A stretch of 64,000 bases of DNA from Candidatus Woesearchaeota archaeon (GTDB lineage: Archaea > Nanobdellota > Nanobdellia > SCGC-AAA011-G17 > PNOQ01). The stretch lies in assembly GCA_964344655.1 (NCBI GenBank), contig CAYFOF010000001.1:159773-223772 (forward strand), given 5' to 3'. The notes below the pieces were generated by a model. It had not been told where the DNA came from. It searched no databases and saw only the letters and a list, made by a program, of their open reading frames with translations. Below are positions 5,544 to 57,395 of this stretch, piece after piece (within the stretch, counting starts at the first letter, position 1; every line of letters begins with the position of its first letter). A program made the translations under genes and the position numbers.

Positions 5544-6269
5544 ATGAAAGAATTAACTTTATTGGGATTAAGTAAAAATGAAGCTAAATTGTATGAGGCT
5601 TTATTGGTTTTAAAGAAATCTGGGGCTGGAGATTTAGCAAAAAAAGCAGATGTTCCCCATAGTAGAGTTTATGATTATCTCGATTCATTAATCCAAAAAG
5701 GGTTTGTTAATATTTTCCCTGGCAAAACTAAACAATTTGTTCCTGCTTCTCCAGATGAGTTGATGGAGATAATTGATAAAAAGAGAGAGGAGTTAGATAA
5801 AACGAAAGAAATTGTTGATGAATTGTCTCAGATATACAAAAATAATCCAGAACAACCTATTGAGTATGCAGTCGGAGAGTCAAATTTTTGGAAATTTATT
5901 TCTAAATTGCCCAAGTCTGAAAAATCTACACGTACGATAAAATGGAATGCTGAGTATCGTCCAGACATAGTGAGGAGATTTAAAGAAAAAAGAAGAAAAA
6001 AAATTAATGTTAAGGTCATGACTAGATTTGACGAATCAACTGAAGAAAATATAAAAAAATGGGCTAAAATAGATAAAAAACTTAAGCCAATTGATAATGA
6101 GGGGGTTGTTATGGAAATTGTTGATGACAAATCAATTTTTATAACTTTAATTGAATCTAATGGAACTTTAGTAATTAGAGATAAGCCATTCATTAAAATG
6201 ATGAAAGATTTATACGATACTAAATATAATTCTATTAAGGAAACTTGCTATGATTTGTTGAAAAAGTAG
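5544..6269 (+). CDS. TrmB-family transcriptional regulator
   Basis: From M29 of the ORF, MKELTLLGLSKNEAKLYEALLVLKKSGAGDLAKKADVPHSRVYDYLDSLIQKGFV is a typical TrmB wHTH. The upstream 28 codons are probably not translated. Confidence 0.7.
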   Translation: MKELTLLGLSKNEAKLYEALLVLKKSGAGDLAKKADVPHSRVYDYLDSLIQKGFVNIFPGKTKQFVPASPDELMEIIDKKREELDKTKEIVDELSQIYKNNPEQPIEYAVGESNFWKFISKLPKSEKSTRTIKWNAEYRPDIVRRFKEKRRKKINVKVMTRFDESTEENIKKWAKIDKKLKPIDNEGVVMEIVDDKSIFITLIESNGTLVIRDKPFIKMMKDLYDTKYNSIKETCYDLLKK

Positions 6270-6305
6270 AAACCTTTTTAATATTATAAACTAAATTTTA
6301 ATTTA

Positions 6306-6881
6306 ATGAAAAGATCTATTTATTTATTCAGGCATGGAACTACTGAAGATAATGCTGCTGGAAAATTTTCTGGTTGGAGACAAACACCTTTAAACAAAAG
6401 AGGAAAAGATGATGCTAGAATAATAGCATTAAGATTGAAAGATAAAAAAATTGAGGTTGCTTTTCAGTCAAGATTAATTAGATCTAAAGATACGTTAAAA
6501 GAAGTTTTAAAACACCATAAAGAATGTAAGACTATTATTACAGATGATAGAATGATTGAAAGATCTTATGGGGACTTACAAGGTAAAACTCATTTGCAAT
6601 ATATTAAGAAAAATTCCCCAGAGAAATATGATAAGTTTCATAGGGGTTACAAAACGAAACCTCCTGGTGGGGAATCTATAAAAGATGTTGAAAAAAGGGT
6701 AAAATCTTTCATAAAAGATTTGATGAAATTAATGAAGAAAAATAAGGTTAATGTTGCAATATCTGCACATGGAAATTCTATGAGACCATTTAGAAGATAT
6801 TTTGAAAAAATGACTGTGAAAGAAATGTTGGCAATAGAAAATCCCTATGATAATTATTTTGAATACAAAATTGATTGTTAA
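6306..6881 (+). CDS. histidine phosphatase family protein (phosphoglycerate mutase-like)
   Basis: RHG motif (LFRHGTTEDN..FSGW) and a second catalytic His (SAHGNSMR) match dPGM/histidine phosphatases. Confidence 0.75.
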   Translation: MKRSIYLFRHGTTEDNAAGKFSGWRQTPLNKRGKDDARIIALRLKDKKIEVAFQSRLIRSKDTLKEVLKHHKECKTIITDDRMIERSYGDLQGKTHLQYIKKNSPEKYDKFHRGYKTKPPGGESIKDVEKRVKSFIKDLMKLMKKNKVNVAISAHGNSMRPFRRYFEKMTVKEMLAIENPYDNYFEYKIDC

Positions 6882-7744
6882 AGATGGTATTTTTTGAGAA
6901 TGTACTTCAATCGGGGAAACTATTGAGTAGGAATTGGAAATTAATTGTTCCTTCTTTTTTAGGGATGTTAATGGCATTGGGGTTTGCTTTGGTTTTTGTC
7001 GTGATGAATGATTTAATTTCTTTAATTAGTACAGATCCTTCAAGTTTATTTATTGCAGGAGGAATTTCTGCTATGGCGAAGAAAGTTTCTTCTGTTTTAA
7101 TTAATCAATCTCAAATTGTTAAAATTGTGTTGAGTTTGTTTGTTTTTATTATAGCTAATTTTATGGCCGGATCTTCTTTAATTGGAATGAAGTATAGTAT
7201 GATTAAAGATACAGTGAATAGAAAAAAGACACCATTAGTTAAATCATTTTTTAAGGGGACAAAATATTATTGGAGAATTGTAGAAATGAGAGCAATGGTT
7301 TTAGTTTTAATTGTTATTCTTTCTATATTATTGAGTTTTCCGTTTTTTATATTGTCTAGGTACTTTGGAGAAAATTCTATATTTGTTTTGTTATCAGTTA
7401 TTTTAGTTTTATTAGTTATTAAGTTAACATTATTCTTTAGATATCCAATATTAGTTAAGAATGAATTGAGAGCAATACCTGCTTTAAATAAAGCAATTAA
7501 TATTTTCAAGAAATATACAAAATACGTATTTTCTACGTGGTTGATTGCAATGTTTATTGTATTCTTCGCTAATTTGTTATTTGATTTTATTAGAATTAGC
7601 GTTACTGATTATTTGTATTATGTTGCTAATTTAGTAGTAATTATGGTTGGATTTTATGTGTTGAAAGAATTATTTATGGTTGTTGTGAATACATTTGTAG
7701 ATATATTTGGGTATGTATCTTATGTTAGACTTCGTAAGAAATAA
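6875..7744 (+). CDS. multi-pass membrane protein, unknown function
   Basis: Several long hydrophobic segments throughout. No recognisable motif. Confidence 0.55.
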   Translation: MLKMVFFENVLQSGKLLSRNWKLIVPSFLGMLMALGFALVFVVMNDLISLISTDPSSLFIAGGISAMAKKVSSVLINQSQIVKIVLSLFVFIIANFMAGSSLIGMKYSMIKDTVNRKKTPLVKSFFKGTKYYWRIVEMRAMVLVLIVILSILLSFPFFILSRYFGENSIFVLLSVILVLLVIKLTLFFRYPILVKNELRAIPALNKAINIFKKYTKYVFSTWLIAMFIVFFANLLFDFIRISVTDYLYYVANLVVIMVGFYVLKELFMVVVNTFVDIFGYVSYVRLRKK

Positions 7745-9235: not shown

Positions 9236-10093
9236 ATGGATAATAGATCTGAAGCTTTAAGTGTTGTTATGGAGAAAGGTCCACTACAACCATCTCAAAT
9301 TGCAACTACAGTTAATACTAATATATTATTTGCTAGTGCAATTCTTTCTGAATTAGTCGATAATAAGAAAATTAAAATTACACATGTTAAAAGAGGAGGA
9401 TCTCCTTTTTATTATGTTCAAGGTCAAGAAGAAAAATTAATGGATTTGGCGAAGTATTTATCTGGAAAAACAAAAGAGGCATATGATCTATTGAGTGAAA
9501 AATTAGTTATTAGAGATTCAAGTGCGGAACCTTGGCAAAGGGTTGCTTTGAGAGAGTTAAAAGATTTTGCTGTTCCGGTACATGTGAATTATAAAGGAGT
9601 GCAAGAAACTTTTTGGAAATGGTATTTAACTAGTAATGATGAAGCTAAAGGATTAATTAAAGATTTATTTAGTGATAAAAAAATTGAACCTAAGAAAGAG
9701 GCTCCTATAGAAAAACCAGTTATTGAAGAACCTAAAAAAGAAGAGGTTATCCAAGAAACTCTAGTTAAAAAAGAACCAATTGAGAATGGAGAGGATTTAA
9801 TTGGGAATTATTTTTCTTCAAATGAAATGTATGTTATTTCTCAAAACGTTGTTAGAAAAGGAAGAGAATTTAATTTTGTGATTGATGTTCCATCTAGAAT
9901 GGGTAAATTAAGGTATTTTGTTAAATATAAAAATAAGAAAAATATTACAGACAAGGATTTATTAGATGCTTTAGATGAGGGATCGGAAAAAGGATTGCCA
10001 GTTTTGTTTTTGAGTCAAGGAGAATTGAATAAAAAAGCTCAAAAATATATGGATGAAAATATTTCAGGAAGACTTCTTTTTAAATCTCTTTAA
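9236..10093 (+). CDS. hypothetical protein with a probable N-terminal winged-helix domain
   Basis: N-terminal about 70 aa looks wHTH-like (PSQIATTVNTNILFASAILSELVDNKKI). A Lys/Glu/Pro-rich linker follows, then a C-terminal alpha/beta domain. No confident family. Confidence 0.4.
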   Translation: MDNRSEALSVVMEKGPLQPSQIATTVNTNILFASAILSELVDNKKIKITHVKRGGSPFYYVQGQEEKLMDLAKYLSGKTKEAYDLLSEKLVIRDSSAEPWQRVALRELKDFAVPVHVNYKGVQETFWKWYLTSNDEAKGLIKDLFSDKKIEPKKEAPIEKPVIEEPKKEEVIQETLVKKEPIENGEDLIGNYFSSNEMYVISQNVVRKGREFNFVIDVPSRMGKLRYFVKYKNKKNITDKDLLDALDEGSEKGLPVLFLSQGELNKKAQKYMDENISGRLLFKSL

Positions 10094-10774
10094 TCTTATG
10101 TTTGCTATAAAGAAAAATAATAAGAAATAAAGATAATTTTTAGTTTTTTCTCCTAAATTTACACTTTCTTTTTGAACTTTCGTGGTTCTTGTTTCACAAT
10201 TTGTGTTGAATATTTCTAAAAATAGTGGAGAAATTAATTCCATTGCTTGTTTTATTTCATTTTGTGGAATTTTTGGATCTTTAGTTTCTAGCCATGCTTC
10301 CCAATCTTTTTCATTTTCTGAAGCTTTTTCTAGATTTTCTTTTAAATTGTATTCTTTTTCGATACATGAAAGTTTTGTTGATGCTTGTTTTTCAAATTTT
10401 GAGTGTAATTTTGGATCTTCTTTTGATATGTAGTGTGGTGCAACAAATGAATCAGAAATGTAATGTGAAGCTACTCCAAATGCATAACTTGCTTCTGAAT
10501 ATTCTTGTTTTTCTAAGTGTTTTTTTGTTTGGTTTAGCCAATGTAGTGTTAAGTTAAGAGATTTTGGATAGTGATGTAGTCTATTATCGTGAAAATCTTT
10601 ATCTGGGGCAATTGAACCTATTTCTAGTTGTTTTAGGTCTAGATTTCTTTGAATTTCGTAAGGAGATGAGTAATATAGTGTTTGAACTATTGATTTGTGA
10701 TTATTCCAGTCTAAAGCTACCGTATTTTGTATTAAAATTAAGAAAATAAGTAATGTTATTATTTTTTTCATCAA
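10064..10774 (-). CDS. membrane-anchored zinc-dependent phospholipase C / S1-P1 nuclease-like protein
   Basis: Signal peptide followed by DWNNHKSIV (W..H), GSIAPDKDFHDNRLHHY, FGVASHYISDSFVAPH and LHSKFE. These match the PLC-like zinc-ligand motif order. C-terminal TM plus basic tail. Confidence 0.55.
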   Translation of the reverse strand: MMKKIITLLIFLILIQNTVALDWNNHKSIVQTLYYSSPYEIQRNLDLKQLEIGSIAPDKDFHDNRLHHYPKSLNLTLHWLNQTKKHLEKQEYSEASYAFGVASHYISDSFVAPHYISKEDPKLHSKFEKQASTKLSCIEKEYNLKENLEKASENEKDWEAWLETKDPKIPQNEIKQAMELISPLFLEIFNTNCETRTTKVQKESVNLGEKTKNYLYFLLFFFIANIRLKRFKKKSS

Positions 10775-10806
10775 ATGGGGAATTTGCTTTTTTATATAAT
10801 ATTATT

Positions 10807-10827
10807 GGAAAAGTTTAAATATTGTTT
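10807..10827 (+). promoter_or_regulatory. promoter repeat copy 1 (GGAAAAGTTTAAATATTGTTT)
   Basis: The 21-nt element is identical to 11396-11416. Its TATA (TTTAAATA) starts 30 nt upstream of the ATG at 10844. Confidence 0.6.
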
Positions 10828-10843
10828 CCCATTTTATTTTGAT

Positions 10844-11395
10844 ATGCAGTTTTCTAATAATGTTTTGGTAACCTTACTTGCTTTTTCTATTATTATTTCA
10901 ACATTTGGAACTTGGACTGTTTTATCCTATATTGATTCAGATTTATTGACTGGAAAAGCTACAGATACCGCAACTACTACATTAACTGTTACTGGAGTTG
11001 CTAGTTGTACAGCAACTGATAATGCAATTGCATTTGGAACTATGGAGAGGGGAACTAGTAATGATAGTACTGTTACTGGAGATTATATAACTGTAGAAAA
11101 TGATGGGAACTCACAAATTAATATTTCTGTTTATGCTACTGCTGAATTATGGGATGGTGCAACATATCAAGCACCAAGTTCTTATTGGCAAATAAAATGT
11201 AATAATTCTGAAAGTGGAACTTGTAATAGTACTTATGGAAATATTCCTGCTGTTGATGGTAATTTGCTTGTTATTGATTTAGATTCGGCAGATTCTACTG
11301 ATTTGTTGACTGTTGGTGTTAATGTTACTATTCCTTCTGATGAAGCTTCTGGTGCAAAATCTGGAACATTAACGTTTAGTTGTATTGCTGCCTAG
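10844..11395 (+). CDS. secreted fibre-subunit candidate 1 (TasA / chaperone-usher-pilin-like beta-sandwich)
   Basis: Hydrophobic N-terminus ends in FGTWTVLSYID (compare the SipW-type signal GTWAAFND). It is followed by TTTLTVTGVASC with alternating hydrophobic residues, and ends VTIPSDEASGAKSGTLTFSC. It is a close paralog (most aligned positions identical by eye) of 11620-12177. Start taken at M24 of the ORF. Confidence 0.55.
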   Translation: MQFSNNVLVTLLAFSIIISTFGTWTVLSYIDSDLLTGKATDTATTTLTVTGVASCTATDNAIAFGTMERGTSNDSTVTGDYITVENDGNSQINISVYATAELWDGATYQAPSSYWQIKCNNSESGTCNSTYGNIPAVDGNLLVIDLDSADSTDLLTVGVNVTIPSDEASGAKSGTLTFSCIAA

Positions 11396-11432: not shown

Positions 11433-11636
11433 ATGAAAAGAGAGGTATCTAGTCGGTTCGTTATTATTTTATTAGTTTTAGCAATTATTTTTTCTATTGG
11501 GGGAACAATGATTGTTTATGATACTGTGAAAGAGCCTAGTGGCAAAAATGTTAATTATGGATCTGGGTTTGTGACTCTGGAAGTTGCTGGAGATGTTGAT
11601 GAAATTGAGGAAGGTAAGAATGAAGTTTTCGAATAA
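11433..11636 (+). CDS. 67-aa secreted mini-protein with a SipW/TasA-type signal
   Basis: MKREVSSRFVIILLVLAIIFSIGGTMIVYDTVKE aligns without gaps to the TasA signal end GGGTWAAFNDIKS. The mature part is about 40 aa with one beta-strand-like stretch (GSGFVTLEVAG). It has its own promoter copy. Confidence 0.5.
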   Translation: MKREVSSRFVIILLVLAIIFSIGGTMIVYDTVKEPSGKNVNYGSGFVTLEVAGDVDEIEEGKNEVFE

Positions 11637-12177
11637 TACTTTGGTGGTTTTGTTATCATTAGCAATAATGGTTTCGGTTTTTGGAACTTGGGTCAGTTTG
11701 TCTTACATTGATTCTTTAGATTTGTTAACTGGTAGAGCTACGGATACTGGAACTACCTCTTTGACTGTTTCTGGTGTAACTAGTTGTACTGCTTCAGACA
11801 ATACTATTGCATTTGGGACTATGGAAAGAGGGACGAGTAATGATAGTGTTACGGTGAATGATTATATTACTATAGAAAATAATGGAAATACTCAGATAAA
11901 TGTTACTGCATATGCTACTGCAGAACTTTGGGATGATGCTACCTATCAAACAACTAGTGATTATTGGCAAGTCAGATGTAATACCTCTGAAAGTGGAACT
12001 TGTAATACTACCTATGGGAATGTTCCGGGAGCAGATGGAAATTTAATTGCTTATTTGGTTAACCCTGATGATTCAACTGATGCAATAACTGTGGGTGTTA
12101 ATGTAACTGTACCTTCTGATGAACTGTCTGGGGCGAAATCTGGAACTTTAACCTTTAATTGTGTTGTTGGTTCTTAA
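11620..12177 (+). CDS. secreted fibre-subunit candidate 2 (paralog of 10844-11395)
   Basis: MKFSNNTLVV..FGTWVSLSYID..TTSLTVSGVTSC..VTVPSDELSGAKSGTLTFNC. The start at M13 of the ORF overlaps the upstream mini-gene by 17 nt. A GAGGAAGG sequence lies upstream. Confidence 0.55.
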   Translation: MKFSNNTLVVLLSLAIMVSVFGTWVSLSYIDSLDLLTGRATDTGTTSLTVSGVTSCTASDNTIAFGTMERGTSNDSVTVNDYITIENNGNTQINVTAYATAELWDDATYQTTSDYWQVRCNTSESGTCNTTYGNVPGADGNLIAYLVNPDDSTDAITVGVNVTVPSDELSGAKSGTLTFNCVVGS

Positions 12178-12214: not shown

Positions 12215-13357
12215 ATGTTTAAAAAGGGTGTTTTATTTGGATTGATTTTTTTAATTTTTGTTAGTTCTGTATCTGCAGTTGGAATTAGCCCACCAAAATC
12301 TATTGTTTACTTTGAACCTAATGGTGTAAGGAGTATTGATTTTTATGTGGTAAATATGGGAGATATAGATAGCAGGGTTAAAATATTTTTTGATGGAGAA
12401 TTAAAAGATTTAATTGTTTGGGATGAGCAAACGGTAGATTTAAACCCTGGACAAAAGAAAGACTTCAATTTTTTGTTAAATATGCCCGGTAGTTTTGATA
12501 CTCCTGGAGACCATAGGGTTGATTTAATTGCTCAAGAAATTCCTATTGCTGAAGAAGATGATGGAACATTTATTGGGGCAGTGACTTCTGTTACTAGTCC
12601 TGTTTTTATTAGGGTTCCTTTTGATGGACCTTATTTGGGGGCAAGATTAAATGTAGATTCTTCTTCTGTTGGTCAAATTGTTAAATTGAAAATATTTTTA
12701 GAAAATTTAGGAAGCATTCCTTTGAATGATTTTCAGGGAAAAATTGATATTGTTAATGTTAAGGGAGAAACAATTAAAGAAATAACATTTGTTGAATCTT
12801 TGGGTTTGAATGAATTTAAGGAAGTTGAGTTATTATGGGATTCTTCTGGAATTGAATCTGGAGTTTATGTTGGTAAATTATTAATTGAATACAATGGAAA
12901 AACAGTAGAGAGTGAATCTGAATTTAGAATGGGAGATGTTTTTGTTAAAATTTTGGATTACCAAAAGAATTTGATTACTGGAAAAATAAATAATTACATT
13001 GTGAAAGTTGGTTCTGAATGGAATGATGTTATTGAAGATGTTTATGTGAATTTAATGATTAATGTTGGAGAGGAAGGATATAATTTTAAAAGTACGAGTT
13101 TTGATTTGGGTGCTTGGGAAGAGAGAGAAATTAAAATGTTTGTGGCTTTAGATGATGGAATTTCTAAATTGCCTGCTGGAGAGTATGATGCAACTATTGG
13201 GGTTTTCTATGAAGAATTGTCAAATAGTGAAGATTTTGTTTTACAAATAAAAGGAAATAATAGTTATTTAGTTATGTTGGGAGTTGGAGTTGTTGTGATT
13301 CTTGGTATTCTGTTTGGGCTACATATCTTTAAAAATAATAAAAGAGGTAAAAAATAG
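12215..13357 (+). CDS. membrane-anchored three-domain Ig-like protein with a PapD/FimC-like N-terminal domain pattern (B1)
   Basis: Signal peptide, then AVGISPPKSIVYFEPNG..FYVVNMGD, then PGDHRVDLIAQEIP and SPVFIRVPFDGPY. C-terminal TM plus KNNKRGKK. Paralog of 20021-21226. Confidence 0.45.
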   Translation: MFKKGVLFGLIFLIFVSSVSAVGISPPKSIVYFEPNGVRSIDFYVVNMGDIDSRVKIFFDGELKDLIVWDEQTVDLNPGQKKDFNFLLNMPGSFDTPGDHRVDLIAQEIPIAEEDDGTFIGAVTSVTSPVFIRVPFDGPYLGARLNVDSSSVGQIVKLKIFLENLGSIPLNDFQGKIDIVNVKGETIKEITFVESLGLNEFKEVELLWDSSGIESGVYVGKLLIEYNGKTVESESEFRMGDVFVKILDYQKNLITGKINNYIVKVGSEWNDVIEDVYVNLMINVGEEGYNFKSTSFDLGAWEEREIKMFVALDDGISKLPAGEYDATIGVFYEELSNSEDFVLQIKGNNSYLVMLGVGVVVILGILFGLHIFKNNKRGKK

Positions 13358-14311
13358 ATGAATAGGAATGATTTTTTAGGAGGATTATCGATTCTTGTGA
13401 TATTTGTTTCTATTATTACTCCTGCTGTTTTATATTTGCAAGTTTCTCAATATTCTGTTGGGGAGAGTGTAACTTTGGCTGCAGTTGGAACAGTGAGTTT
13501 GACTGTTGCACCTGAATGTGGAGATGCAGTTTGTGAAACTGGTGAAGATTGTTCTTCTTGTTCTGCTGATTGTGGTGTTTGTGCTCCAACTACTCCCGGC
13601 GATACTGGTGGTTCTGGGGGCGGAGGAGGAGGCGGAGGAGGCTCATCTAGCACTCCTATAAATTATCTTTATAATTTTATGGAAGAAGATCAATATTCTA
13701 ATGCATTAGACTCTGGAGATACAGTTATATTGAATTTTGATTCGGATGCACAATATACTTTTGAAATTACTAGTGTCTTGGTTGATAATCAATTGGTTTT
13801 TGAGTATGAAGGAACGGAATTTACTGTTTATTGGGATGAGGTTGCTTACTTAGATGTAGATGTAGATGGAAATGATGATTTGAAAATTAGTTTTATTAAT
13901 GAACATGTTGTTTGGACATATTTAACTAGTGAGGTTTTGCCAGAGGGTGGAGCCAAATCTCCAGTTATGAAAAAAGAGAAAGTCGCGTTTCCTTCTTTAA
14001 GGGGAGTTTCTTCTCCAGAAAGCGTATTAAGTTTGATCATTATATTTGTTGTTATGCTAATTGGGGCAGGAGTTATATTTTATTATCAGCACCATAGGTT
14101 GAAGAGAGTTGAAAAAATACAATCTAAAAAAATACCTAAATTATCAAGAGGATATAAATCTAAAGATAGTAGTAAGGAAGAAAAATCTAAGTATAAAGAA
14201 AAATTATTGAAACAAAAATCTTTGCTAAAAGAGTCTTATGAACAAGGACATGTAAGTAAAGCTTCTTATTTAAAAGGAAAAAAGAGAATTGAAAATATTT
14301 TAAAAAGATAA
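13358..14311 (+). CDS. bitopic surface protein: Cys-rich module, poly-Gly linker, beta domain, TM helix and Lys-rich cytoplasmic tail with a SHOCT-like end
   Basis: N-terminal hydrophobic segment, GTVSLTVAPECGDAVCETGEDCSSCSADCGVC, G9 run, DVDVDGNDDL domain, TM (LIIIFVVMLIGAGVIFYY), and tail ending GHVSKASYLKGKKRIENIL. Confidence 0.5.
   Translation: MNRNDFLGGLSILVIFVSIITPAVLYLQVSQYSVGESVTLAAVGTVSLTVAPECGDAVCETGEDCSSCSADCGVCAPTTPGDTGGSGGGGGGGGGSSSTPINYLYNFMEEDQYSNALDSGDTVILNFDSDAQYTFEITSVLVDNQLVFEYEGTEFTVYWDEVAYLDVDVDGNDDLKISFINEHVVWTYLTSEVLPEGGAKSPVMKKEKVAFPSLRGVSSPESVLSLIIIFVVMLIGAGVIFYYQHHRLKRVEKIQSKKIPKLSRGYKSKDSSKEEKSKYKEKLLKQKSLLKESYEQGHVSKASYLKGKKRIENILKR
13607..13642 (+). repeat. (GGN)n tract encoding GGSGGGGGGGGG
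   Basis: A GC-rich island in AT-rich DNA. It produces a spurious poly-Pro ORF on the opposite strand. Confidence 0.8.
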
Positions 14312-14351
14312 GATTTATAAATAATTAAATTAAAATATAGGTAAAGTGGTG

Positions 14352-14648
14352 ATGAAAAAGAAAAAAGCTAAACAAAATGTTTTGAGAGAAGCATTAGGTG
14401 ATTTGTCAAAAGAATTGTCTCGATTAAAAAGAGAGAAACAGTCTTTTATTAAAAAAATTGATTCTTTAGAGAAGAGTATTCAAGCTACACAATATAGGGA
14501 GAGTGCTTTGAGAGATAAAATTACTAAATTAATTGCTGCTGAATCTGAATTATCTAAGAAAAAATCTAATTCTATGAATAAGATTAACTTGATTAAAGAA
14601 AAGATAAACAAACTCAAGAAAGTTAAAGAAGAATTAAGAGATGTTTAA
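14352..14648 (+). CDS. small Lys-rich coiled-coil protein
   Basis: About 98 aa with a heptad-like charged pattern (LSKELSRLKREKQSFIKKIDSLEKSI...) and no hydrophobic segment. ATG at 14352 preferred to GTG at 14346. Confidence 0.5.
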   Translation: MKKKKAKQNVLREALGDLSKELSRLKREKQSFIKKIDSLEKSIQATQYRESALRDKITKLIAAESELSKKKSNSMNKINLIKEKINKLKKVKEELRDV

Positions 14649-14732: not shown

Positions 14733-17700
14733 TTGGTTTATAAGAAATATATTTATAGAAAGGGGAAGAAATTTGGTCCGTACTACTTCAAAAGTGTTAG
14801 AGAAAAGGATGGATCTGTTAAATCTGTTTATTTAGGAAAAAAACACCCCAACTATAATTTATTTGTTTTAATTGGAGTTATTGGAATTGCTTTATTATTA
14901 TCTTTAGTGGGTTTTGTTTCTTATAATGCATTTGTTGTTACAGATGAAATTATTTCTGAAGAAGGAATTTCTGATGTTGTTGAACAGGAAGAAGAAATTG
15001 TTGAAGAAGAAGTTTTAGAAGAATTGCCTGAAGAAGAGGTTGTTGAGGAAGAAATTGTTGAAGAACCCCCTGAAGAAGAAATTATTGAAGAATTAATTGA
15101 TGAAGGCATAATTGATATTGAAGAAGAGTCAATAAGTATTGAAAAAGAAGTTGTTGTTGAAGTAGTAAATGAAACTGAAATAAATATTTCTGAAGATGAA
15201 GTTGTTGAAGAAAATGTTACGGAAGAAAATATTAATGAATCTATTATTGAAGAAGATAGAGAAATTCAAATAAATGAAACTGAGATTAATGTAACTGAAG
15301 ACAATAAAACTTTAGTTAATATTACAGAGATTAACGAGAGTAGATCTATAAATGATTCTATTATAATAAAACCATTAAATCTTACTCAAGAAAATTATAC
15401 TTTAGAAATTGTTGAAATTGTTTCTCCAGTTAGAATTAATGAACCTGTGAAAGTTGAGAAAATAATTACAGCAGATAAGGTTGTTAGTGGAATTAATATT
15501 GATTTACCTTCTGGAGCTTCTGATATTTCTATTTTAGATACTTCTGATGAAGTTAAAATTGGTTTGGATGGAAGAAAAGTAAGAGAAGGCTCTGGAAATT
15601 TGGTTACAGGAAATGTTGCTCTTGATTTTGAAGGAAGCTCTTTCTTAGATTTTTTGAAAGATATTTTTAGATTTACTGGTTTTGTCGTTTATGAAGAAAA
15701 TAATAATGTTATTATAAAAGACCCTGTGAAAGAAGTTAAAGTTGAATATTATTTGCCTGGTCCAGTTTCTATTGAAAATGATTTGGGGAATGGATTTAAG
15801 GAGATTTTTATTTCAAGTGATATAAATTATACTAATGTTAGTGTTTATTCTAATATTGGAAATGTAGATGGCCATGTCAATGTTAGAGATTCTTTAGGAA
15901 AAGAGATTGCATACATTGGAGAAGATTTAGATGGAGATGGAAATGTTGATTATATCGAATGGATTTCTGCTACCTCTGAGAATAATTATACAGTTAGTAT
16001 TACTATTTTGAATTTCCAGAGTTTTCCAGTTGTTGGTTTAAATTGGACTGTAATGTTTAATACAACTGGCGTTGCCGATTTGAGAATTACTCCTGTGAAC
16101 GATACTACTTGGGGGATTGTGGGAGATGCTAATGATTTGATGTTTTTGGATGTTCGTTGTGGGGATACTATTATGGATTCTTATTGGGAAAATGGTTCTA
16201 TTGTTGTGAGTAATTATTCTTGTAATGAGACTGGAGTTGAATCTAGTAGAGTAAGAACTTCTGGAGGACATTATTTGGAATTTGATTTTGGTGGACAAGT
16301 TGCTCATGCTCAAAATTCTGCGGTTTGTGGACAATATCTCAATTCGGACACAACTTTGACTGGAGATTTAATTAATTGTGGAAATCCAGGATTAGGAGTT
16401 CAATTTAGTCAAGGAGATTTTACAGTTGATTGTGCGGGATTTACTATAGATGGAACTAAGACAGGATATGGGTTTTTCTTACAAAATGGACATAACGTTA
16501 CTCTGAAGAATTGTACTATAACTGAATTTGCATATGGGATTTATAGTAATGGAAATGCATATGGAAATTTAATAATTAATAATACTATCCATAATAATTC
16601 AGATCGGGGTATTATTTTAACAGATGGAGACTGGATTAATATGGAAAATAATTCTATTATTGATAATGTTATTTATGATACTGATACTGGGAATTCTGGA
16701 ATAGAAATACAACGGGGAAGAGGATATAACATTTCTGGAAATCATATTTATGATGTAGATTTGCATGGAATCTATAATTATTATGTCTATAATTCTACTG
16801 TTGCATATAATTTGATAGAGGATACTGTTAGTTCACAAGGAAGTGGAATTAGAGCATATAGGAATGAAAATGTTACATACTATGGAAATAATATTACAAA
16901 TCCTGCAGACTATGGATTGAGAATTGAGGGTACAAATAATAGTGTTTTTGATTCAAATATTATTACGGGATCCGGAGATATTGGGGTTTATTTTTATTCC
17001 GCCGCCTCTGAAAATGTATTAAAAAATAATGATATTTCTAACATGGATTCAAGTTATGGAATTTATCTTATTCATACTAATACTCAAAATAATGTTATTG
17101 CAAATAATAGTATTTATGGGAGCCCTTTAAGTGGTGTTGCTGTTGGGTTGTGGAACTCTGCTGCTGGGTCTGGAAATGTTATTGCAAATAATAGTATTTA
17201 CGAAAATACTCAAAGGGGAATTTTTACTGTTACACCCGACACTTTGATTTATAATAATGATATCTATAATAATACTATAGTTGGGATTTATGTCTATAAA
17301 GGAACCGGACCAGATTCTACTGGAACAAATATTAGTCACAATAGGATTTATGAAAACACTCAACAAGGAATTTTTACTGCTGCTGTTAGTGGGATTATAA
17401 TTGAGTATAATAATCATACAGATAATTGGGAATCTGCTGCCTATGGAGGCAACATTCAAATTGCAAATACAGATGATTCTATACTTAGGGGGAATTTAAT
17501 TAGTGGTGGAGGCCACATGGGGGTAAGAGTTTATGGAACTCATACAAATAATACATGGGATAGCAATATTATTGCAAATAATAGTCAACAGACTAGTTAT
17601 CCGGAAGTTTATTTTTGTGAATCAACTCCTAGTACTGGATGTGCAAATAACACCTGGATAGGCAATACTCTTGATTCGACTGGAGGAATAGGAAATAATG

Positions 17701-26577: not shown

Positions 26578-29226
26578 TTATGCCTTCTTTTTTCTTCTTT
26601 TCCTTTTTTTCTTTCTTATAATGGAGAAAATTAGTAAAAATAAGAGTATAGAAACTACGAATGGCCCGAAATGTTTTATTAGTTTGATGTAATATTCATT
26701 AAATTCTTCAGTCGTTTTATCTACAAGGTCTTTAAATTCTTTAATTGGGGTTTCTTCTTCTATTGGAATCTCTTTCTCCTCTGTCGCTTTTTGTATAACT
26801 TCATTTATTGATTTAATGTATATATCTGCCTTGGTTCCAATTATTTTTTCAACTTTTACTAATAAATCATATGTTTTTCCATCTAAATCGATATCGACTT
26901 TCCATTCTTCTCCTTCAGTCATATTTTTTGATTGTTTTTCTGAAGAAACAGAAACTTCCACTATCTTTCTTTCTCTGTATATGTTTTCTATTTTTAATTC
27001 ATGTTTTTCATTGTTAATATCAAATTCCAATCTTTGGTTTTCAGACATTGTTCTTTCAAAACCTTCTTCGACTGAATTATCTCTTACTGAATAACTGTTG
27101 GATCCTGAAGATGATGTATCTTCTGTGGCAGTGGGTGTTGCTGTAAGAGAGAAATTTATGTTTTTGTTTTCGGTTAAATTTATTAGAGTAGTATTTGTTT
27201 GATATCCAGATGCTTGTGCAGTTATTGTATAATTTGAATAGTTTGTTTTTGTCCCACCAGTGTTTATATAGTCTAACAATGTTTGGCGAGGGATACTATC
27301 GTTTGTAAGGTCTGAATAAATCACTCCGTCAGTAGAGTTTTTTATTGTTATGTTTGTGTTCAATACGCCCGTTGCAATGTCTAAATACCATTTTCTGGAG
27401 TAGGAAGAAATATTCTCGGAATCAACAAATTCTGTTCCATCAAATGTAACATTTATTAGGGTATTTCCTGTTGAATTTCCAGATAGATGTAAATTCCCGC
27501 CGACTGTTGTATCTTGAATTGTGTTGTTAAATGCTCCAGTTCCTTCGGGTCCGAGAACTAAATCCCATCTAAATATTAAATCTCCCGTAACATTATTGCT
27601 ATAAAAATTTTCTCCCATTACATTATCGTGCAATATTAAATCTCCGATTATGGTATTATTATATGCAGTGTTATTATATGTATCGTGAAGTGAATAAAAT
27701 ATTCCTCCTTTCATTGTATTATTATACATTGTGTTGTTGAATGCACCCCATTCAAATAAAAATCCAAAGTCCATATCTTCCATTGTATTGCCATGAACGG
27801 TTACATTTGTAGAATTTCCAGTAAGCATTATCCCATGTGCTGCAGCTACTGTACTATTTCCTGTGTTGTCATAAATGAATCCATCTGAAGTGTTTTTAGA
27901 TACGGAGATACAATAATATGTTGCATTGCAAGTGTTGTTAAATACATTAAAATCTTCTGTAAAGTAAACATCCATTGCATTGTTAAGAAGATCTTCTTCT
28001 AGATAATTATTAAAAATATTGACATTATATGTTTTTTCTGTAACGTTGTGTCCTGTTTTTAGATAAGATGTGTAAAGATTATTATTTGAAAAGTTAGTAT
28101 TGTTTGCACCTTTTAATGTAATTGATACGTTGTAAAGATTATTTCCATCGTAAGTAGAGTTGTAGTGTTCTGAATCCATTAATAAATTAAAAAATACATT
28201 GTTGTTTATGTTTGCATTGTAGTTGTCCCAGATTTCAATGTCAAAATCATTGTATACAGTTGAATTAAATTCATTATTTGATATGTTGAAGTTGTAAGAA
28301 TCTCCGTCTCCTGAAACATGGTAAGCGTAAAATTTGTCTATGTCTCGGAATTTAGAATTTACAACTGTTAAATTTTTTGGAGAATCGAATCCTAGTGAGA
28401 AAACAGACCCAGTTACATTAATCATTGTTAGGTTGTCTATATTTATATCATGTGCGTCTGGTAAATAATATATTCTTCCAGTAGAATTTACATATTCTGT
28501 ATTTACTAGGTTTGTGTTGTTTCCCCAGAATTCTAATCCTTGACTTTGGCCTGTAAAATATGAATTATTGATTGTCATGTTGTTTGGTTTTAAAGTCAAT
28601 TTTCCTGTAGAGTCTGTGAAATTTAATCCACTAAGATAAACATCTTCTCCCTGGAAAGTGATTGCTGTTGATCCAGTATAGGTCCAATTTTCCACTCGAA
28701 TATCTCCTACTGTAGATTCTAAACTTAATCTTCCTTCTATGTTATTTAATGTAAGTCCGCTAGCAGACCCATATACTTGAAGATATGAGGTTCCTTCAAA
28801 TGTAACGTTGTTAAATACTGTTCCGTCAACTCCTGTGAATAATGCAATCTTTTGGCTGTTTGACCTTACTGTTATATTGTGCATTGCAAGATTGGCTCCT
28901 GAACCAAAAAGTGCCCAATTATTTGATGCACTCCAATCTTCAAAAATACAATTTTGAATAGTTATGTCTGATACTGTTGCAGCATATCCCCATTTATTTG
29001 GGGCGGTGTTTGATGTATTCCCAAAAATTGTGTATCCATTACAATCAAGTACAGAATTTGATCCTCCTGAAAAGCAATTGGAATCTAATGCTGCATAAAC
29101 GTCTGATGTTAAATCATAGTTAGTGCTAGAAGATAATGCTTGGCAGGTTGAAATATCTACTGCATCAGATTCAGTCGACAATAATGAAATCAAAATCAAT
29201 ACAACTATTAGCAAACCTCTTTTCAT
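26578..29226 (-). CDS. right-handed parallel beta-helix surface protein (882 aa) with a C-terminal TM anchor
   Basis: Signal peptide. Long arrays of about 22-aa N-rich coils (NNxF.N..., NTxYNNT). A WYLDI carboxypeptidase-regulatory-like domain, as in the 1763-aa adhesin. A DIDLDGKTYDL domain. TM plus RKKKRKRRKKKA. Confidence 0.7.
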   Translation of the reverse strand: MKRGLLIVVLILISLLSTESDAVDISTCQALSSSTNYDLTSDVYAALDSNCFSGGSNSVLDCNGYTIFGNTSNTAPNKWGYAATVSDITIQNCIFEDWSASNNWALFGSGANLAMHNITVRSNSQKIALFTGVDGTVFNNVTFEGTSYLQVYGSASGLTLNNIEGRLSLESTVGDIRVENWTYTGSTAITFQGEDVYLSGLNFTDSTGKLTLKPNNMTINNSYFTGQSQGLEFWGNNTNLVNTEYVNSTGRIYYLPDAHDINIDNLTMINVTGSVFSLGFDSPKNLTVVNSKFRDIDKFYAYHVSGDGDSYNFNISNNEFNSTVYNDFDIEIWDNYNANINNNVFFNLLMDSEHYNSTYDGNNLYNVSITLKGANNTNFSNNNLYTSYLKTGHNVTEKTYNVNIFNNYLEEDLLNNAMDVYFTEDFNVFNNTCNATYYCISVSKNTSDGFIYDNTGNSTVAAAHGIMLTGNSTNVTVHGNTMEDMDFGFLFEWGAFNNTMYNNTMKGGIFYSLHDTYNNTAYNNTIIGDLILHDNVMGENFYSNNVTGDLIFRWDLVLGPEGTGAFNNTIQDTTVGGNLHLSGNSTGNTLINVTFDGTEFVDSENISSYSRKWYLDIATGVLNTNITIKNSTDGVIYSDLTNDSIPRQTLLDYINTGGTKTNYSNYTITAQASGYQTNTTLINLTENKNINFSLTATPTATEDTSSSGSNSYSVRDNSVEEGFERTMSENQRLEFDINNEKHELKIENIYRERKIVEVSVSSEKQSKNMTEGEEWKVDIDLDGKTYDLLVKVEKIIGTKADIYIKSINEVIQKATEEKEIPIEEETPIKEFKDLVDKTTEEFNEYYIKLIKHFGPFVVSILLFLLIFSIIRKKKRKRRKKKA

Positions 29227-37448: not shown

Positions 37449-37521
37449 TGGGGCGAGGGGGATTTGAACCCCCGACCTCTAGATCTTCAGTCTAGCGCTC
37501 TCCCAGCTGAGCTACCGCCCC
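37449..37521 (-). tRNA. tRNA-Phe (GAA)
   Basis: A 73-nt cloverleaf: GGGGCGG/TCGCCCC acceptor, GCTC/GAGC D-stem, CTAGA-CTGAAGA-TCTAG anticodon arm, GGGGG-TTCAAAT-CCCCC T-arm and discriminator A. No encoded CCA. Confidence 0.9.
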
Positions 37522-46893: not shown

Positions 46894-47736
46894 ATGAAAA
46901 AGAGAGGGCAGGTAACTATTTTTATTGTATTGGGAATTATCGTTTTAGTTGTGTTTGGTTTGTTATTTGCTCTGCGTGTTGATTTTGTTGAAGATCTTTT
47001 TGGAGGGGAGTCTGGAAGGCAGTTTGATTCAGTAGATATTGAGGCTGTTAAAGATTCTATATCTTTTTGTGTTGAAGGTTCTTTATTAGACGCAGTTAAT
47101 CATGTTTCTAATCGTGGTGGATATTTTTCACCAATTAATTCTAGTTTTTATGCGAGAGATGTTTATGGGGTTTTAGTTACTTATGCATGGACTTCTGATT
47201 ATGGTACAAGGTTGCCTAGTTTGACGGGATTGGGAGAACAAATTAAAATTTATATGGATGATTCTGATAATCGTGCTTTGATTGAAGAGTGTATTGATAA
47301 ACAATTAGAAATTTATGAAGATAGTTGGGATTTTGAAAATGTAAATGAATTTGAGTTTAAGGTTCCAAGAGTTTCTGAAAATAGTATTAAACAAGAAATA
47401 ATTTATCCTGCTAGCAAAGTTTTATCTGTTAAAGGACGTAATGGCGTAGCAACAACAACCGAAGTTTTGGCAGAACTAGATATCGCTTTGGGTCAAGCAC
47501 AAAATGTTGCGAATGAAATTGTAGATTGTTTTAACGGAAATGGATTTAGTAATGAATATTGTAATCAAGAAGGAGTTCCGTTTAGAATGAGTGTTTATAA
47601 TCTTTTAAATTATAGAAATGTGATTGGAATGTTAGAAGGAGATTGCGGAGGAGAATGTTTAGAATGTTATATCTTGAAGATTCCTGTTGAGGATGGAGAT
47701 GATATTTCATTTAATGTTAATATGAAAACATGTTAG
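46894..47736 (+). CDS. class III signal peptide (pilin-like) protein, 280 aa
   Basis: MKKRGQ|VTIFIVLGIIVLVVFGLLFAL is a prepilin-type N-terminus. The C-terminus is Cys-rich (CGGECLECY). Confidence 0.6.
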   Translation: MKKRGQVTIFIVLGIIVLVVFGLLFALRVDFVEDLFGGESGRQFDSVDIEAVKDSISFCVEGSLLDAVNHVSNRGGYFSPINSSFYARDVYGVLVTYAWTSDYGTRLPSLTGLGEQIKIYMDDSDNRALIEECIDKQLEIYEDSWDFENVNEFEFKVPRVSENSIKQEIIYPASKVLSVKGRNGVATTTEVLAELDIALGQAQNVANEIVDCFNGNGFSNEYCNQEGVPFRMSVYNLLNYRNVIGMLEGDCGGECLECYILKIPVEDGDDISFNVNMKTC

Positions 47737-50700
47737 GAATATATAAAAAAGGGATTTCAGTATTTATGTCTTTTTTAATAGTGTTTTCTACATTAGGTTT
47801 TGTTTCTGCTGATAGTCCTATTCCAGTTAGTTGTTGTTTAGATGATGGACAAGGAAATTTTTGTAGTACTTTAGAAGATGGCCAAGGTCCTGAAGTTTGT
47901 TCTTCTGAAAATTTAAGAAGTGGTTCTTGTGATTTAATTTCTCAGTGTAATGTTGGAACTTGTGTTCCTCCTGATGGCGGGGCGTGTTTATCTGATTATA
48001 CCAATGAACAATGTGATTCTATTGGTGGAGAATTTTATAATGCAATTGAAAGAGATGTTCCTGCTTGTCAATTGGGTTGTTGTGCAGATAGTTTAGAGTG
48101 TGGAATAATGCAACAACAAGAATGTAATGGAAATTTTGTTAGTTCTATAACTGATCCTGGGGCTTGTTTATTAGAATGTAGGCCTGAAACTACTGGATGT
48201 TGTGTTGAATCTAATTCTTGTAGTTATCAAACTGCTGAAGATAGTTGTAGTGGAGAATTTTTGCCTGATCAATTTTGTTATGAAAGAGATTTTTGTAATG
48301 AAAGATATGAAAGTCATGCGTATACTTATTTAGGTGATGCTAGAATTGTTCCAGAATCTGATATTGATGTTTATTGGTATGACTCTAATGGAAATATGGA
48401 AGAAAGAGTTGGAGATGTTGATAGACGTACTGGAGAAGTAGTTCCAATTCCTGGAGTGCCAGAAGGATTGCAATTGAAGGGAGATTGTGATTATCCTGAT
48501 GAAATTGCTTTTGATGCCGATGGTGCAAAAGGAGGGAAAGAAAATGCTTATTGTAAATCAACTGCGTGTGTTGTTGAATGTGAGAATTGTGAACCTTCCT
48601 CTTTCAAAAATGGAGAAACTATTTGTTTGAATATTTTTGGAGGACAATATAGTAACGAAAAGAGAAGTACTGCTTTGAGAGAATATATTTTATCTTGTGT
48701 TAATGGAGAGATACAAGCAGATGAATTAATTGAAGAAAGATCAGAAAGAATTTGTATTGATGATTCTAAAGATTTTAATGGTGTTGAGAGAATGTATGCT
48801 CGTGCTGATATTGAGAACAGATGGGAAGAATGTTTAACTTGTGGAGAGGGTGGAACATTTGATTGGTCTGGATATATTCCTGGATCTGGTGGATTAATTT
48901 TATCAGGGTTAGGAGATTGGTGTGCATCTGAAGATGGTGGTTTATTTGGTTCAGTACCTGGAAATGTTGGAGGTTCTGAAAAGTGTGAAGACTTTGGTGA
49001 TGATCAAGGTGTTGAAATGTGTTATTATGATTCTGATTTATGGTCTCCGCTAGGAAGTTGTAACCCTATTTATCCTCCTGCGAAAAGTTCTGAAGAACAA
49101 TGTGGAAAATGTGGTGGCGGAGGAGATAGTACCACAAATTTATGTACTGAACAAGAATGTAATGCTTTAGGAGATTGTCAATTTGAAGAGAGTGGCGCAT
49201 TTAGTAGTGGATTGTTAGCTTCTGGTGCATTAGCTTTAGGAAGTGCAGTTGGAGTTACCACATTAGGATATGCTTTTTGCCAATCTGTTGCATTTATTGG
49301 TTTTGAAACTTGTACTGTTGCTGTTGGACAGACTGTAACTCAATGGTTATTTGGAAGTAGTTTGTATTGGGGAGTAGCTGGAATGGTTTTAGGTACTGCT
49401 GCTGCAGATCAAAGCGATTATCAAGAATTAGATGAGTATGGTTATTCTTTCGAAAAAGAAAATGGAAAATATGATTTGGCTGCAATGATATCTTTTGCTC
49501 GTGCTTTAGAGTATGCTTTAGGAGATGAAGAGTCAGTAGAGTTAGGAGAAGATTTAGGAGAGATTGATGGTGGAAATCCTTGGGTTGCTGGAACTGCTGG
49601 AGGGTTATTAAATCTTGCTGCATATACTTTAACTAAAATTAATACTTTTGATGAAATATTATTTAATGTGGGTAGTTCATCTATACAAGATCTTGCTTTT
49701 GCGTTTGGAATTCCAAGAACTATTGGTGCTAAATTTTTCCAAGCTATGCAAAGTGTTGCGGGTATTTCTACGATATACTCTGTTTCTGAATCTATGAATA
49801 CTGGAAGTTGTGTTCCTGAAACTGCGTATACTAATAGTGATCATTGTGGAGAATGTGGTGGTGCTGAAGGACAATTTTTCTGTACTAGAGATAGGTGTGA
49901 TATTTTGGGTGGTGATGCAGGATATTGTCATTTTGAACCTAAGTTAGATGGAACTGACGATGGGATTTGTTTGCCTTCTGATCCTACAGATACAACTCCT
50001 CCAGAAATTACATATATGAATTTGAAGATGCATGATTTAGATAATTCTTTAACTGGAGAATTTGAGGTTGATGGAAATCAAATGACTACAGATTCCTTTG
50101 CATGGTTTGATGCTGTTCAGGTTAAAATAAATCTTACAACCGATGAGCCTTCAAAATGTGCAGCTGCGTTTGAAAGTGAATTAACATATGAAAGCATGGC
50201 TAGTGGAGAATTGAAGTTTGATGGATTCTTTGAAAATAGTCATGAGATAATGTTTAATTTAACATCTCAACAAAAAATGGATGGAGAAAATACTCTTTAT
50301 ATTAAATGTACTGATGTAAGTGGTGCAGCTACTGGTGAGAATGATGATAGCAATTGGATTAAAATGATATTTGGGGAAGAACCAAATGATGTTCCTCCGG
50401 AAATAATAGATATAGATCCTGCTGATGTTTTGAATTTGCCTGCTGGTACTTCAGAAGTTGAATTAAAACTAATTGTTGAAGATAGGAGAGATGAAGTTAC
50501 TGAATGTAAATATGCTGTTGCAGATGTTACAAATTATAACGATGATGGTGGAGAGGTTACATATGTTGCTAACTATGAAGATTTAAATCAATTGTTTACA
50601 AGAACTGGTACAAGAAGTTGTCCTGGATCTTCATTGCCTGATGATTGTACAGAATTTAGAGCAAATATTGTATTTGATGAATCAGAATCTCAAGAAATAG

Positions 50701-57214: not shown

Positions 57215-57249
57215 AGCTTTAAGAATAAACTTTTTCTTTTATTTTTTAT

Positions 57250-57332
57250 GCCGAGATCGCATAACCTGGTATTGCACCGGCCTTGAAAGCCGGGCCCGAA
57301 AGGGCGTCTGGGTTCAAATCCCAGTCTCGGCG
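57250..57332 (+). tRNA. tRNA-Ser (UGA)
   Basis: 83 nt: GCCGAGA/TCTCGGC acceptor, CCGGC-CTTGAAA-GCCGG anticodon arm (anticodon TGA), long variable arm GCCCGAAAGGGCGT, CTGGG-TTCAAAT-CCCAG T-arm and discriminator G. Confidence 0.9.
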
Positions 57333-57395
57333 TATATTCTTTAAACTATATTTTGAAAACGATAGTTTTATAAATGATTTATTTTTTTAAAATTT

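Follow-up and report, generated by a model that had tools for sequence, protein, structure and literature searches.

Membrane-anchored WxLIP-like proteins encoded beside putative surface partners in DPANN archaea

The 64,000-nt stretch of a Candidatus Woesearchaeota contig analysed here (the window) encodes two membrane proteins, B1 and B2, each directly downstream of a gene whose product ends in a common domain, here called the A domain; two small A proteins (A1 and A2) are encoded ahead of B1 and a large one (Big) ahead of B2. Judged from their sequences, B1 and B2 are best filed as DPANN-archaeal homologues of the WxL-interacting protein (WxLIP; DUF916-DUF3324-transmembrane (TM) helix) of Firmicutes, with an extra stalk domain, and as belonging to a WxLIP-type surface-complex system of a new, archaeal form whose partner domain is likewise new. 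The explanation to which we give slightly better than even weight is that B, a membrane-anchored WxLIP homologue, is a dedicated partner that binds and tethers the upstream A-domain protein by strand complementation. A first-pass annotation of this DNA had likened the first domain of both proteins to PapD/FimC chaperones and had not considered WxLIP, their sequence-level relative.

Architecture of B1 and B2 and their relation to WxLIPs

The two proteins are paralogues (BLASTP over 342 aa: 30% identity, E 1e-44), and both run from a signal peptide through three beta-sandwich domains to a C-terminal TM helix with a basic tail. In the AlphaFold2 (AF2) model of B1, made from a 19-sequence alignment and with a mean predicted local distance difference test score (pLDDT) of 81.9, the beta-sandwich domains span residues ~22-140, 141-242 and 243-347 and are followed by the helix and tail (Table 1). 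The model thus displays the two further immunoglobulin (Ig)-like domains, the TM segment and the basic tail that the first-pass annotation had proposed, and every peptide quoted there is present in place: GVSPARKIIEYSPGLEQEVEFNIINSENKDMKVVIYVEG, LPQKYDEPGEHEVKIVAREIP and VAVVHMVRINVPYPG in B2, and GISPPKSIVYFEPNG, PGDHRVDLIAQEIP and VFIRVPFDGPY in B1.

The B family, for which Pfam offers no model of its own, comprises 3236 representatives at 50% identity (E<=1e-3); of the 150 best relatives listed, nearly all are 340-525 aa long, mostly ~400. Among its best-conserved parts are the mature N-terminal A strand [LIV]G[IV][ST]PxR (2.38 bits per position), PG.H...I.A.E in strand F of domain 1, and PYPGKY at the hinge of domains 1 and 2 (3.59 bits per position). 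Pfam and NCBIfam searches with B1, B2 and their neighbours gave no PapD match and weak generic Ig matches only; in Pfam scans of the family, generic CARDB, FixG_C and DUF11 matches occur.

The relation to WxLIP emerged from profile comparison. We took 24 distinct genuine WxLIPs from metagenomes by means of their NQIDKxxxYFDLK motif, one of which was confirmed with the domain models (2.6e-40 for PGBD, 2.3e-46 for HBD). The B family aligns with these over 208 collinear columns covering two domains (hhalign 97.7%, E 2.5e-12; B1 residues 31-242). Taken singly, domain 1 matches the DUF916 part of the 24 WxLIPs (92.6%, P 4.4e-7), while DUF3324 is matched by domain 2 (95.6%) and by domain 3 (61%), the latter being a duplicate of domain 2 (99.4% between the two). 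Since the cross pairs of domains 2 and 3 with DUF916 stay below 1% (0.9% and 0.2%) whereas domain 1 with DUF916 and domain 2 with DUF3324 score high, the match is domain-specific. The Pfam model WxLIP_HBD (PF11797, DUF3324) matches 52 of 114 members (best 2e-9), and in one of them, P0137, residues 146-241 reach 37.9 bits, above the 28.9-bit gathering cut-off; WxLIP_PGBD (PF06030, DUF916) matches 17 of 53 isolated N-domains (best 7.7e-6). The C-terminal TM helix and basic tail are also present in the retrieved genuine WxLIPs. The motif NQIDKxxxYFDLK is absent from the B family, which has [LIV]G[IV][ST]PxR...F[ED]P instead, and the hhalign alignment begins only at ...FDLK of WxLIP and ...DFEP of B. 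Solved EfmWxLIP1 structures are available in the PDB (9i1y, 9i25); neither was reached by phmmer or profile searches with B, neither was among the best 50 Foldseek matches of the full-length or the domain-1 model, and a literature search found no paper for either.

WxL clusters contain at minimum a small WxL protein (signal peptide plus domain) and a large protein with a shorter C-terminal WxL domain, and they also hold one DUF916-DUF3324-TM protein (PMC9772566, PMC10599100). In the WxLIP N-domain the first strand is split in two, and the two domains stand at right angles; DUF916 alone is poorly soluble, and a disordered loop of the N-domain is predicted to complete the partner's sandwich (PMC10599100). 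This predicted loop insertion is in effect donor-strand complementation; its authors mention neither PapD nor archaea, and our literature search returned nothing relevant on a link between WxL and donor strands. Binding of DufA to SwpA and LwpA in Biacore assays is cited in PMC9772566 from Galloway-Pena 2015.

Gene pairing, B lineages and the partner domain

Hidden Markov models (HMMs) for A and B were run on 51 loci taken from GTDB genomes with a narrow alignment, on two further loci (L006, L007) and on the window; L007 duplicates L006 and was left out of the clustering, which covers 53 loci (the window, L006 and L008-L058). Most loci are labelled DPANN, as Woese-, Pace-, Aenigmat- or Nanoarchaeota or as Nanobdellati, and a few only as 'archaeon'. 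Six B loci (L031, L032, L035, L037, L041, L053) come from metagenome-assembled genomes (MAGs) labelled 'uncultured Methanosarcinales', which may reflect either mislabelling or a real wider distribution.

That each B gene directly follows a putative substrate gene, as the first-pass annotation had noted, is true of the window and extends well beyond it: in the 51 loci, L006 and the window, 63 of the 74 B genes come immediately after a same-strand gene that encodes a C-terminal A domain. For six of the other 11, <1.2 kb of sequence is available upstream, most of these six lying at a contig edge. In the window, 38 nt separate the end of A2 from the start of B1, and the stop codon of Big (1763 aa) overlaps the start of B2 by 4 nt. 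Many A-B gaps elsewhere measure -16 to +60 nt. Others, between Big and B, cluster at ~470-630 nt and would fit the presence of a small extra gene; one such insert was confirmed, a ~170-aa TM protein at 4364-4876 of L006, between Big and a B2-type gene.

The B proteins also diverge along with their partners. Neighbour-joining places every one of the 17 B proteins that have small partners inside one clade of 20, and the nearest neighbour from another locus shares the partner class in 57 of 61 cases. These patterns mark B1-type and B2-type as old paralogue lineages, each tied to one partner class, with B1 in the lineage that pairs with small A proteins and B2 in the one that pairs with large ones. 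Extra B paralogues were seen in L006 (two tandem B genes, 6210-7286), in L028 (three to four B-like open reading frames (ORFs)) and in L031 and L038. Clustering of the 53 loci brought out no conserved gene of usher, peptidase or sortase type. Fourteen B loci share a ~140-aa protein in which an N-terminal TM segment is accompanied by a short stretch resembling a beta-sandwich (FG..PG....L.I.N......pG.Y.G); it follows a B1-type gene in L024 (5040-5462), the only one of these loci checked for its place, and it is not recognisable in the window.

The A domain, which the small A proteins share with the C-terminal ~150 residues of Big (Table 1), has conserved positions F..G, N.GN...N and VP..E..G.K.....F and ends <=8 aa from the C-terminus in 73 of 76 proteins. 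Partners fall into two classes, small A proteins of ~200 aa (1-3 copies per locus) and adhesin-like proteins of ~400-2600 aa. Several Big proteins across the loci carry ordinary cleavable-looking signal peptides; these would need a tether, as they would otherwise be released. In some others (window 14733-14950; L009 from 2842, L010 from 514, L029 from 1179) a TM segment comes after a basic, conserved N-terminal motif on the cytoplasmic side, MVYKKY[IV]xRxGKKFGPYYFKSVR...YLG. Small A proteins have a conserved [IV]SN ahead of their hydrophobic segment (window 10844-10990 and 11620-11770; L011-L055), and ~10 residues past it comes a nearly invariant stretch, TG[FAK]A-T...TGT-x-N-[LV]-[TS]-[IV], which could serve for processing, for strand donation, or for both. 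A GTW...S motif after the hydrophobic segment had suggested that A proteins are of the TasA/SipW type; this idea was rejected, as no TasA, camelysin, Fimbrial, SCPU or WxL match was found. DUF4402 at E ~0.09 in two of the 72 A domains was treated as noise.

With strand complementation as the favoured explanation, the system would work as follows. B would be exported, its signal peptide removed (between VSA and VGISP...), and its C-terminal helix would keep it in the cytoplasmic membrane, where the two DUF3324-like Ig domains would form a stalk with the PapD-like-fold N-domain at the membrane-distal end. Each B would be the dedicated partner of the secreted protein or proteins encoded immediately upstream, the B1-type pairing with ~200-aa small A proteins and the B2-type with giant beta-helix adhesin-like proteins. 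The B N-domain would bind the A domain by beta-strand complementation through two elements: the A strand at the mature N-terminus, which is conserved, and the long F-G strand, for which the isolated model shows disorder. The A-domain protein would in this way be stabilised and kept non-covalently at the cell surface, the DUF3324-like domains and TM helix holding the B-A complex on the cell. The F-G strand of B1 is a run of 17 residues with alternating conserved hydrophobics (V/I120, A122, V126, L130, V/I132, V134); residues 114-122 have pLDDT <50, so that its first half is of low confidence in the monomer model. We regard this segment as a candidate complementing (donor) strand.

Several observations weigh against the explanation just given. 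The low pLDDT of the F-G loop may simply mean a variable loop. Most of the WxLIP_PGBD matches are under the Pfam gathering score, and domain 1 also scores 82.9% against B's own domain 2 (hhalign), so part of its signal is generic to Ig domains. On the partner side, the N-terminal TM segment of the window's Big may itself anchor that protein, and the A domain matched nothing relevant in Pfam or the PDB with profiles of 16 and 72 sequences. As a divergent WxL domain it was tried and rejected: hhalign gave 1.8% against 50 WxL domains, aligning the last 28 columns only (VP...G.K...F with VPG...Y..TLTW.L), and the Pfam WxL model matched none of the 72 A domains.

Fold of domain 1 and alternative explanations

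Foldseek with the full-length B1 model returned mostly multi-Ig proteins (ciliary ASH proteins, C3/A2M) and was uninformative on domain 1, so a model of this domain only (residues 21-140) was made, with pLDDT 86 and a predicted template modelling score (pTM) of 0.75. Its top 25 PDB matches are all chaperone-usher chaperones (Caf1M, CsuC, FaeE, DraB, FimC, SfaE, PapD; E 1e-5 to 1e-4, query-normalised TM-score 0.61-0.71). After these, the best 50 matches include MSP domains and ASH-type ciliary proteins; in the SCOP and Pfam classifications, MSP, ASH and chaperone domains are all members of the PapD-like superfamily. The PapD/FimC-like first domain of the first-pass annotation therefore stands as to fold, where the modelled likeness is real; family membership is not supported by Pfam, profile alignment or the cleft residues, as detailed below.

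A tentative alternative makes more of this fold. B would belong to a chaperone-like assembly pathway without an usher and would hold A subunits transiently at the membrane by donor-strand complementation, until the N-terminal extension of a small A protein (LTG-x-AT...TGT-x-x-LTV) displaced the B strand by donor-strand exchange; the product would be a fibre of small A proteins with the giant adhesin at its tip and the basal subunit still on membrane-anchored B1. In its boldest form, which we think equally doubtful, this pathway would make B1 and B2 the first chaperones to be found for any donor-strand surface fibre in archaea, capping the groove of the A subunits and handing them over, usher-less, by donor-strand exchange into a small-A stalk with a beta-helix adhesin tip. 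If this were true, its corollary would be that chaperone-usher chaperones, Firmicute WxLIPs and DPANN B proteins descend from one ancient strand-donating module.

Caf1M and CsuC, the best likenesses of domain 1, have long F1-G1 loops. Big combines an adhesin-like N-terminal part with a C-terminal A domain, a layout shared by FimH, PapG and CsuE of chaperone-usher pili, and loci hold 1-3 small A genes. The C-terminal position of the A domain is what binding of a free C-terminal strand would call for, but two B lineages, one per partner class, fit stable 1:1 complexes better than a general chaperone, and the equivalents of Arg8 and Lys112 are not conserved. The small A proteins do carry a conserved T-rich extension of ~20 residues before the A domain, yet this is only a putative donor strand; in Big proteins, what corresponds to it seems to be the final strand of the domain before. 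The binding domain of B, moreover, lies about two Ig domains away from the membrane, the A proteins have no similarity to known donor-strand pilins or TasA-like subunits, and polymerisation is not known from the homologous WxL system. In favour of such a pathway, archaea do have donor-strand filaments, for which no chaperone is known (PMC9715654, PMC12337348). These filaments consist of beta-sandwich subunits joined by strand donation and are described as chaperone-independent; the literature reports no chaperone for them, and their assembly factors are an open question (PMC9715654, PMC12337348, PMC11821415).

That B1 and B2 are themselves divergent members of the periplasmic PapD/FimC chaperone family we consider improbable, in spite of the first places taken by such chaperones in Foldseek. 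The FimC sequence from which the claim had been drawn is correct, Arg8 and Lys112 included (checked against fimC of E. coli MG1655), and the gapless alignment of the first block of B2 with it is real, with 11 identities in 39 positions instead of the roughly 12 claimed. Of 500 shuffled FimC sequences, 1.2% reach 11 identities in their best 39-residue window, whatever its offset, and with both sequences anchored at their mature N-termini none of 5000 shuffles does. The block-1 likeness is therefore modestly above chance, but pairwise BLASTP is not significant (E 0.061 for B2 with FimC, no match for B1). The order of the three blocks was recovered when the whole B family was aligned by hhalign with five E. 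coli chaperones (FimC, YadV, SfmC, YehC, YfcS).

Profile-profile comparison with PapD N-domains, proposed earlier as a check, gave 8-15% with small alignments and 28% with 159 sequences from which signal peptides had been removed (P 6e-4). The score in the latter case, 25.4, exceeds a column-shuffle null (11.0 +/- 2.1, maximum 18.7, n=200), and B domains 2 and 3 score only ~10 against the same N-domains, both of which favour membership, but the domain-1 signal is no stronger than its similarity to B's own other Ig domains, and DUF916, a clear homologue of domain 1, gives 1% against PapD N-domains. Pfam PapD_N had no match among 19 members, 53 (N-domains, E<=10) or 114 (full-length, E<=0.01), and PapD_C none in any of the 114. 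Domain 2 is DUF3324-like and not PapD_C-like (hhalign 0.9% against the PapD C-domain). The basic cleft residues Arg8 and Lys112, invariant in chaperones, anchor the carboxylate of the subunit C-terminus; a check for them had been proposed, and they are not conserved in B. The position aligned with Lys112 (Arg133 in B1) is Arg in only 32% of the 159 sequences, and that aligned with Arg8 is T/I/V rather than basic, with an R/K two residues upstream (K28) conserved in 80%. B is also archaeal and membrane-anchored, with no usher-like gene in the 53 clustered loci. Searches of PDB sequences with B (phmmer and profiles) returned de novo Ig designs, 2qsv and Bap and no chaperone, and a literature search gave nothing relevant on a PapD-like protein in archaea.

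It is likewise hard to credit that B proteins are independent Ig-domain surface or adhesion proteins (e.g. S-layer-associated spacers) merely co-expressed with A and not binding it, a reading in keeping with the commonness of TM-anchored Ig-like domains in archaeal surface proteins and with the generic CARDB, FixG_C and DUF11 matches, but at odds with the strict same-strand gene order and frequent stop/start codon overlap, with the co-divergence of two B lineages and two partner classes across several DPANN phyla, and with the homology to WxLIP, whose binding to WxL proteins has been measured (as cited in PMC9772566 from Galloway-Pena 2015).

Surroundings of the locus and comparison with known systems

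The window has ~30% G+C and archaeal gene content, including a tRNA-intron endonuclease, an RNase Z-like protein and an S-layer-like protein (53816-55969; S_layer_C, 3.8e-8); the nearest homologues of B1 are from Candidatus Woesearchaeota MAGs. Features of the A/B modules are given in Table 1.

Table 1. Features of the A/B modules in the window (aa, amino acids; i-E, independent E-value)
Feature	Position	Strand	Description	Evidence
Small A protein 1	10775..11395	+	~200 aa; probable start 10844 (MQFSNN...); N-terminal hydrophobic segment, then LTGKATD...TTLTV extension, A domain reaching C-terminus	A HMM i-E 1e-70, alignments
Small A protein 2	11584..12177	+	~200 aa; probable start 11620 (MKFSNN...); gene directly upstream of B1	
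B1	12215..13357	+	380-aa type-I membrane protein	ORF, AF2 model, B HMM E 6e-145, clade assignment
B1 domain 1	12278..12634	+	residues 22-140; PapD-like-fold, DUF916-like, split A strand; membrane-distal	Foldseek, hhalign, Pfam
B1 F-G segment	12542..12616	+	residues 110-134; variable acidic loop 111-117, then long strand	pLDDT, conservation table
B1 domains 2+3	12635..13255	+	residues 141-347; duplicated DUF3324/CARDB-like Ig stalk	hhalign, Pfam WxLIP_HBD
B1 TM helix and basic cytoplasmic tail (KNNKRGKK)	13262..13357	+	helix at residues 350-378, then tail	AF2 helix 350-378; family-wide conservation
Cys/Gly-rich TM protein	13358-14311	+	317 aa	
Coiled-coil protein	14346-14648	+	100 aa	
Big	14733..20024	+	1763-aa surface protein: N-terminal TM segment, right-handed beta-helix repeats, C-terminal A domain	Pfam Beta_helix 2.3e-53; A domain aa 1612-1762, i-E 3e-44
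Big C-terminal A domain	19566..20021	+	27% identity to small A2	
B2	20021..21226	+	401-aa B1 paralogue; lineage pairing with large A-domain proteins	

Some neighbours deserve mention: (i) Divergent from and adjoining the A1 gene, 10064-10774 (- strand) encodes a secreted Zn-dependent phospholipase C-like protein (Pfam 4.2e-14), of interest in an organism thought to attach to host membranes. (ii) The Cys/Gly-rich protein between B1 and Big has two TM segments, one at the N-terminus and one beyond a Cys-rich module and a poly-Gly run, and ends in a Lys-rich tail; its family adjoins A/B modules in 10 loci (including L006, 7318-9348). (iii) Downstream of B2 lie a 564-aa surface protein with Cys-rich repeats (weak DPY/DUF7107 matches) and a TM segment (21839-23533), and a 395-aa protein of B-like build, with signal peptide, beta-rich region, TM segment and basic tail (23530-24717), to which the B HMM gives no match; both recur in four related loci. 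(iv) Two large ORFs, 47730-51383 (1217 aa) and 26578-29226 (882 aa), have no Pfam match. The window also holds two tRNA genes, tRNA-Phe(GAA) at 37449-37521 and tRNA-Ser(TGA) at 57249-57333, and its GC skew is strongly positive at 1-26 kb and 38-58 kb.

WxL/WxLIP clusters have been described almost only in Lactobacillales and Bacillales, and explained by peptidoglycan binding. Their gene logic recurs in Woese-, Pace-, Aenigmat- and Nanoarchaeota, and DPANN archaea are not known to have peptidoglycan; homologues there suggest that the core function of the WxLIP system is another, namely protein-protein strand complementation with membrane tethering and not wall binding. The PapD-like fold of the DUF916-type domain links the B family structurally to pilus chaperones, which makes the mechanism directly testable. 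With these proteins it can also be tested whether a chaperone takes part in any strand-donation system of archaea. Attachment to hosts is the way of life of DPANN archaea, and a dedicated system displaying adhesin-like proteins as long as 2600 aa makes a good candidate for their attachment apparatus.

Three kinds of known system can be set beside the B/A pair. (i) Archaeal donor-strand filaments (Sulfolobus threads, Pyrobaculum bundling pili, Pyrodictium cannulae, haloarchaeal tafi) and TasA fibres are, like it, surface structures of archaea or monoderms. They have no PapD-fold partner gene, however, and none of their subunits is matched in sequence by the A proteins; they are also observed polymers, whereas the A/B system is known from genes and models. 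(ii) The PapD/FimC/Caf1M/CsuC chaperones (PF00345 plus PF02753) are the best PDB matches to the predicted fold of B domain 1, with which they share weak collinear motifs: a mature N-terminal G-[IV]-x-x-x-x-[RK] strand, xVxN ending strand B, LP...P before and in strand F, and a last strand of alternating hydrophobic residues with Pro at its end. In both systems a dedicated gene adjoins those of its clients, and the bound domain of the client is at the extreme C-terminus. Unlike B, which is tethered to the membrane by way of two stalk domains in an archaeal host with neither usher nor outer membrane, these chaperones are soluble and periplasmic; the sequence similarity is not significant, the second domain is another one, and Arg8 and Lys112 are not conserved in B. 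(iii) The WxLIPs (CscA/Duf proteins; PF06030, PF11797 and TM helix) of the WxL/Csc clusters of Lactobacillales and Bacillales differ from B in host and in the absence of a third, duplicated DUF3324-like domain. B lacks NQIDKxxxYFDLK and is matched by the PGBD model only below threshold; its partner domain is not detectably WxL, no LPxTG protein accompanies it, and its two paralogues are specialised, one per partner class, where WxL clusters have one WxLIP each. B and WxLIP nevertheless share two consecutive homologous domains within the same order of signal peptide, DUF916-like domain, DUF3324-like domain, C-terminal TM helix and basic tail, and both systems combine at least one small stand-alone partner, one large surface protein with a C-terminal partner domain, and the interacting protein itself.

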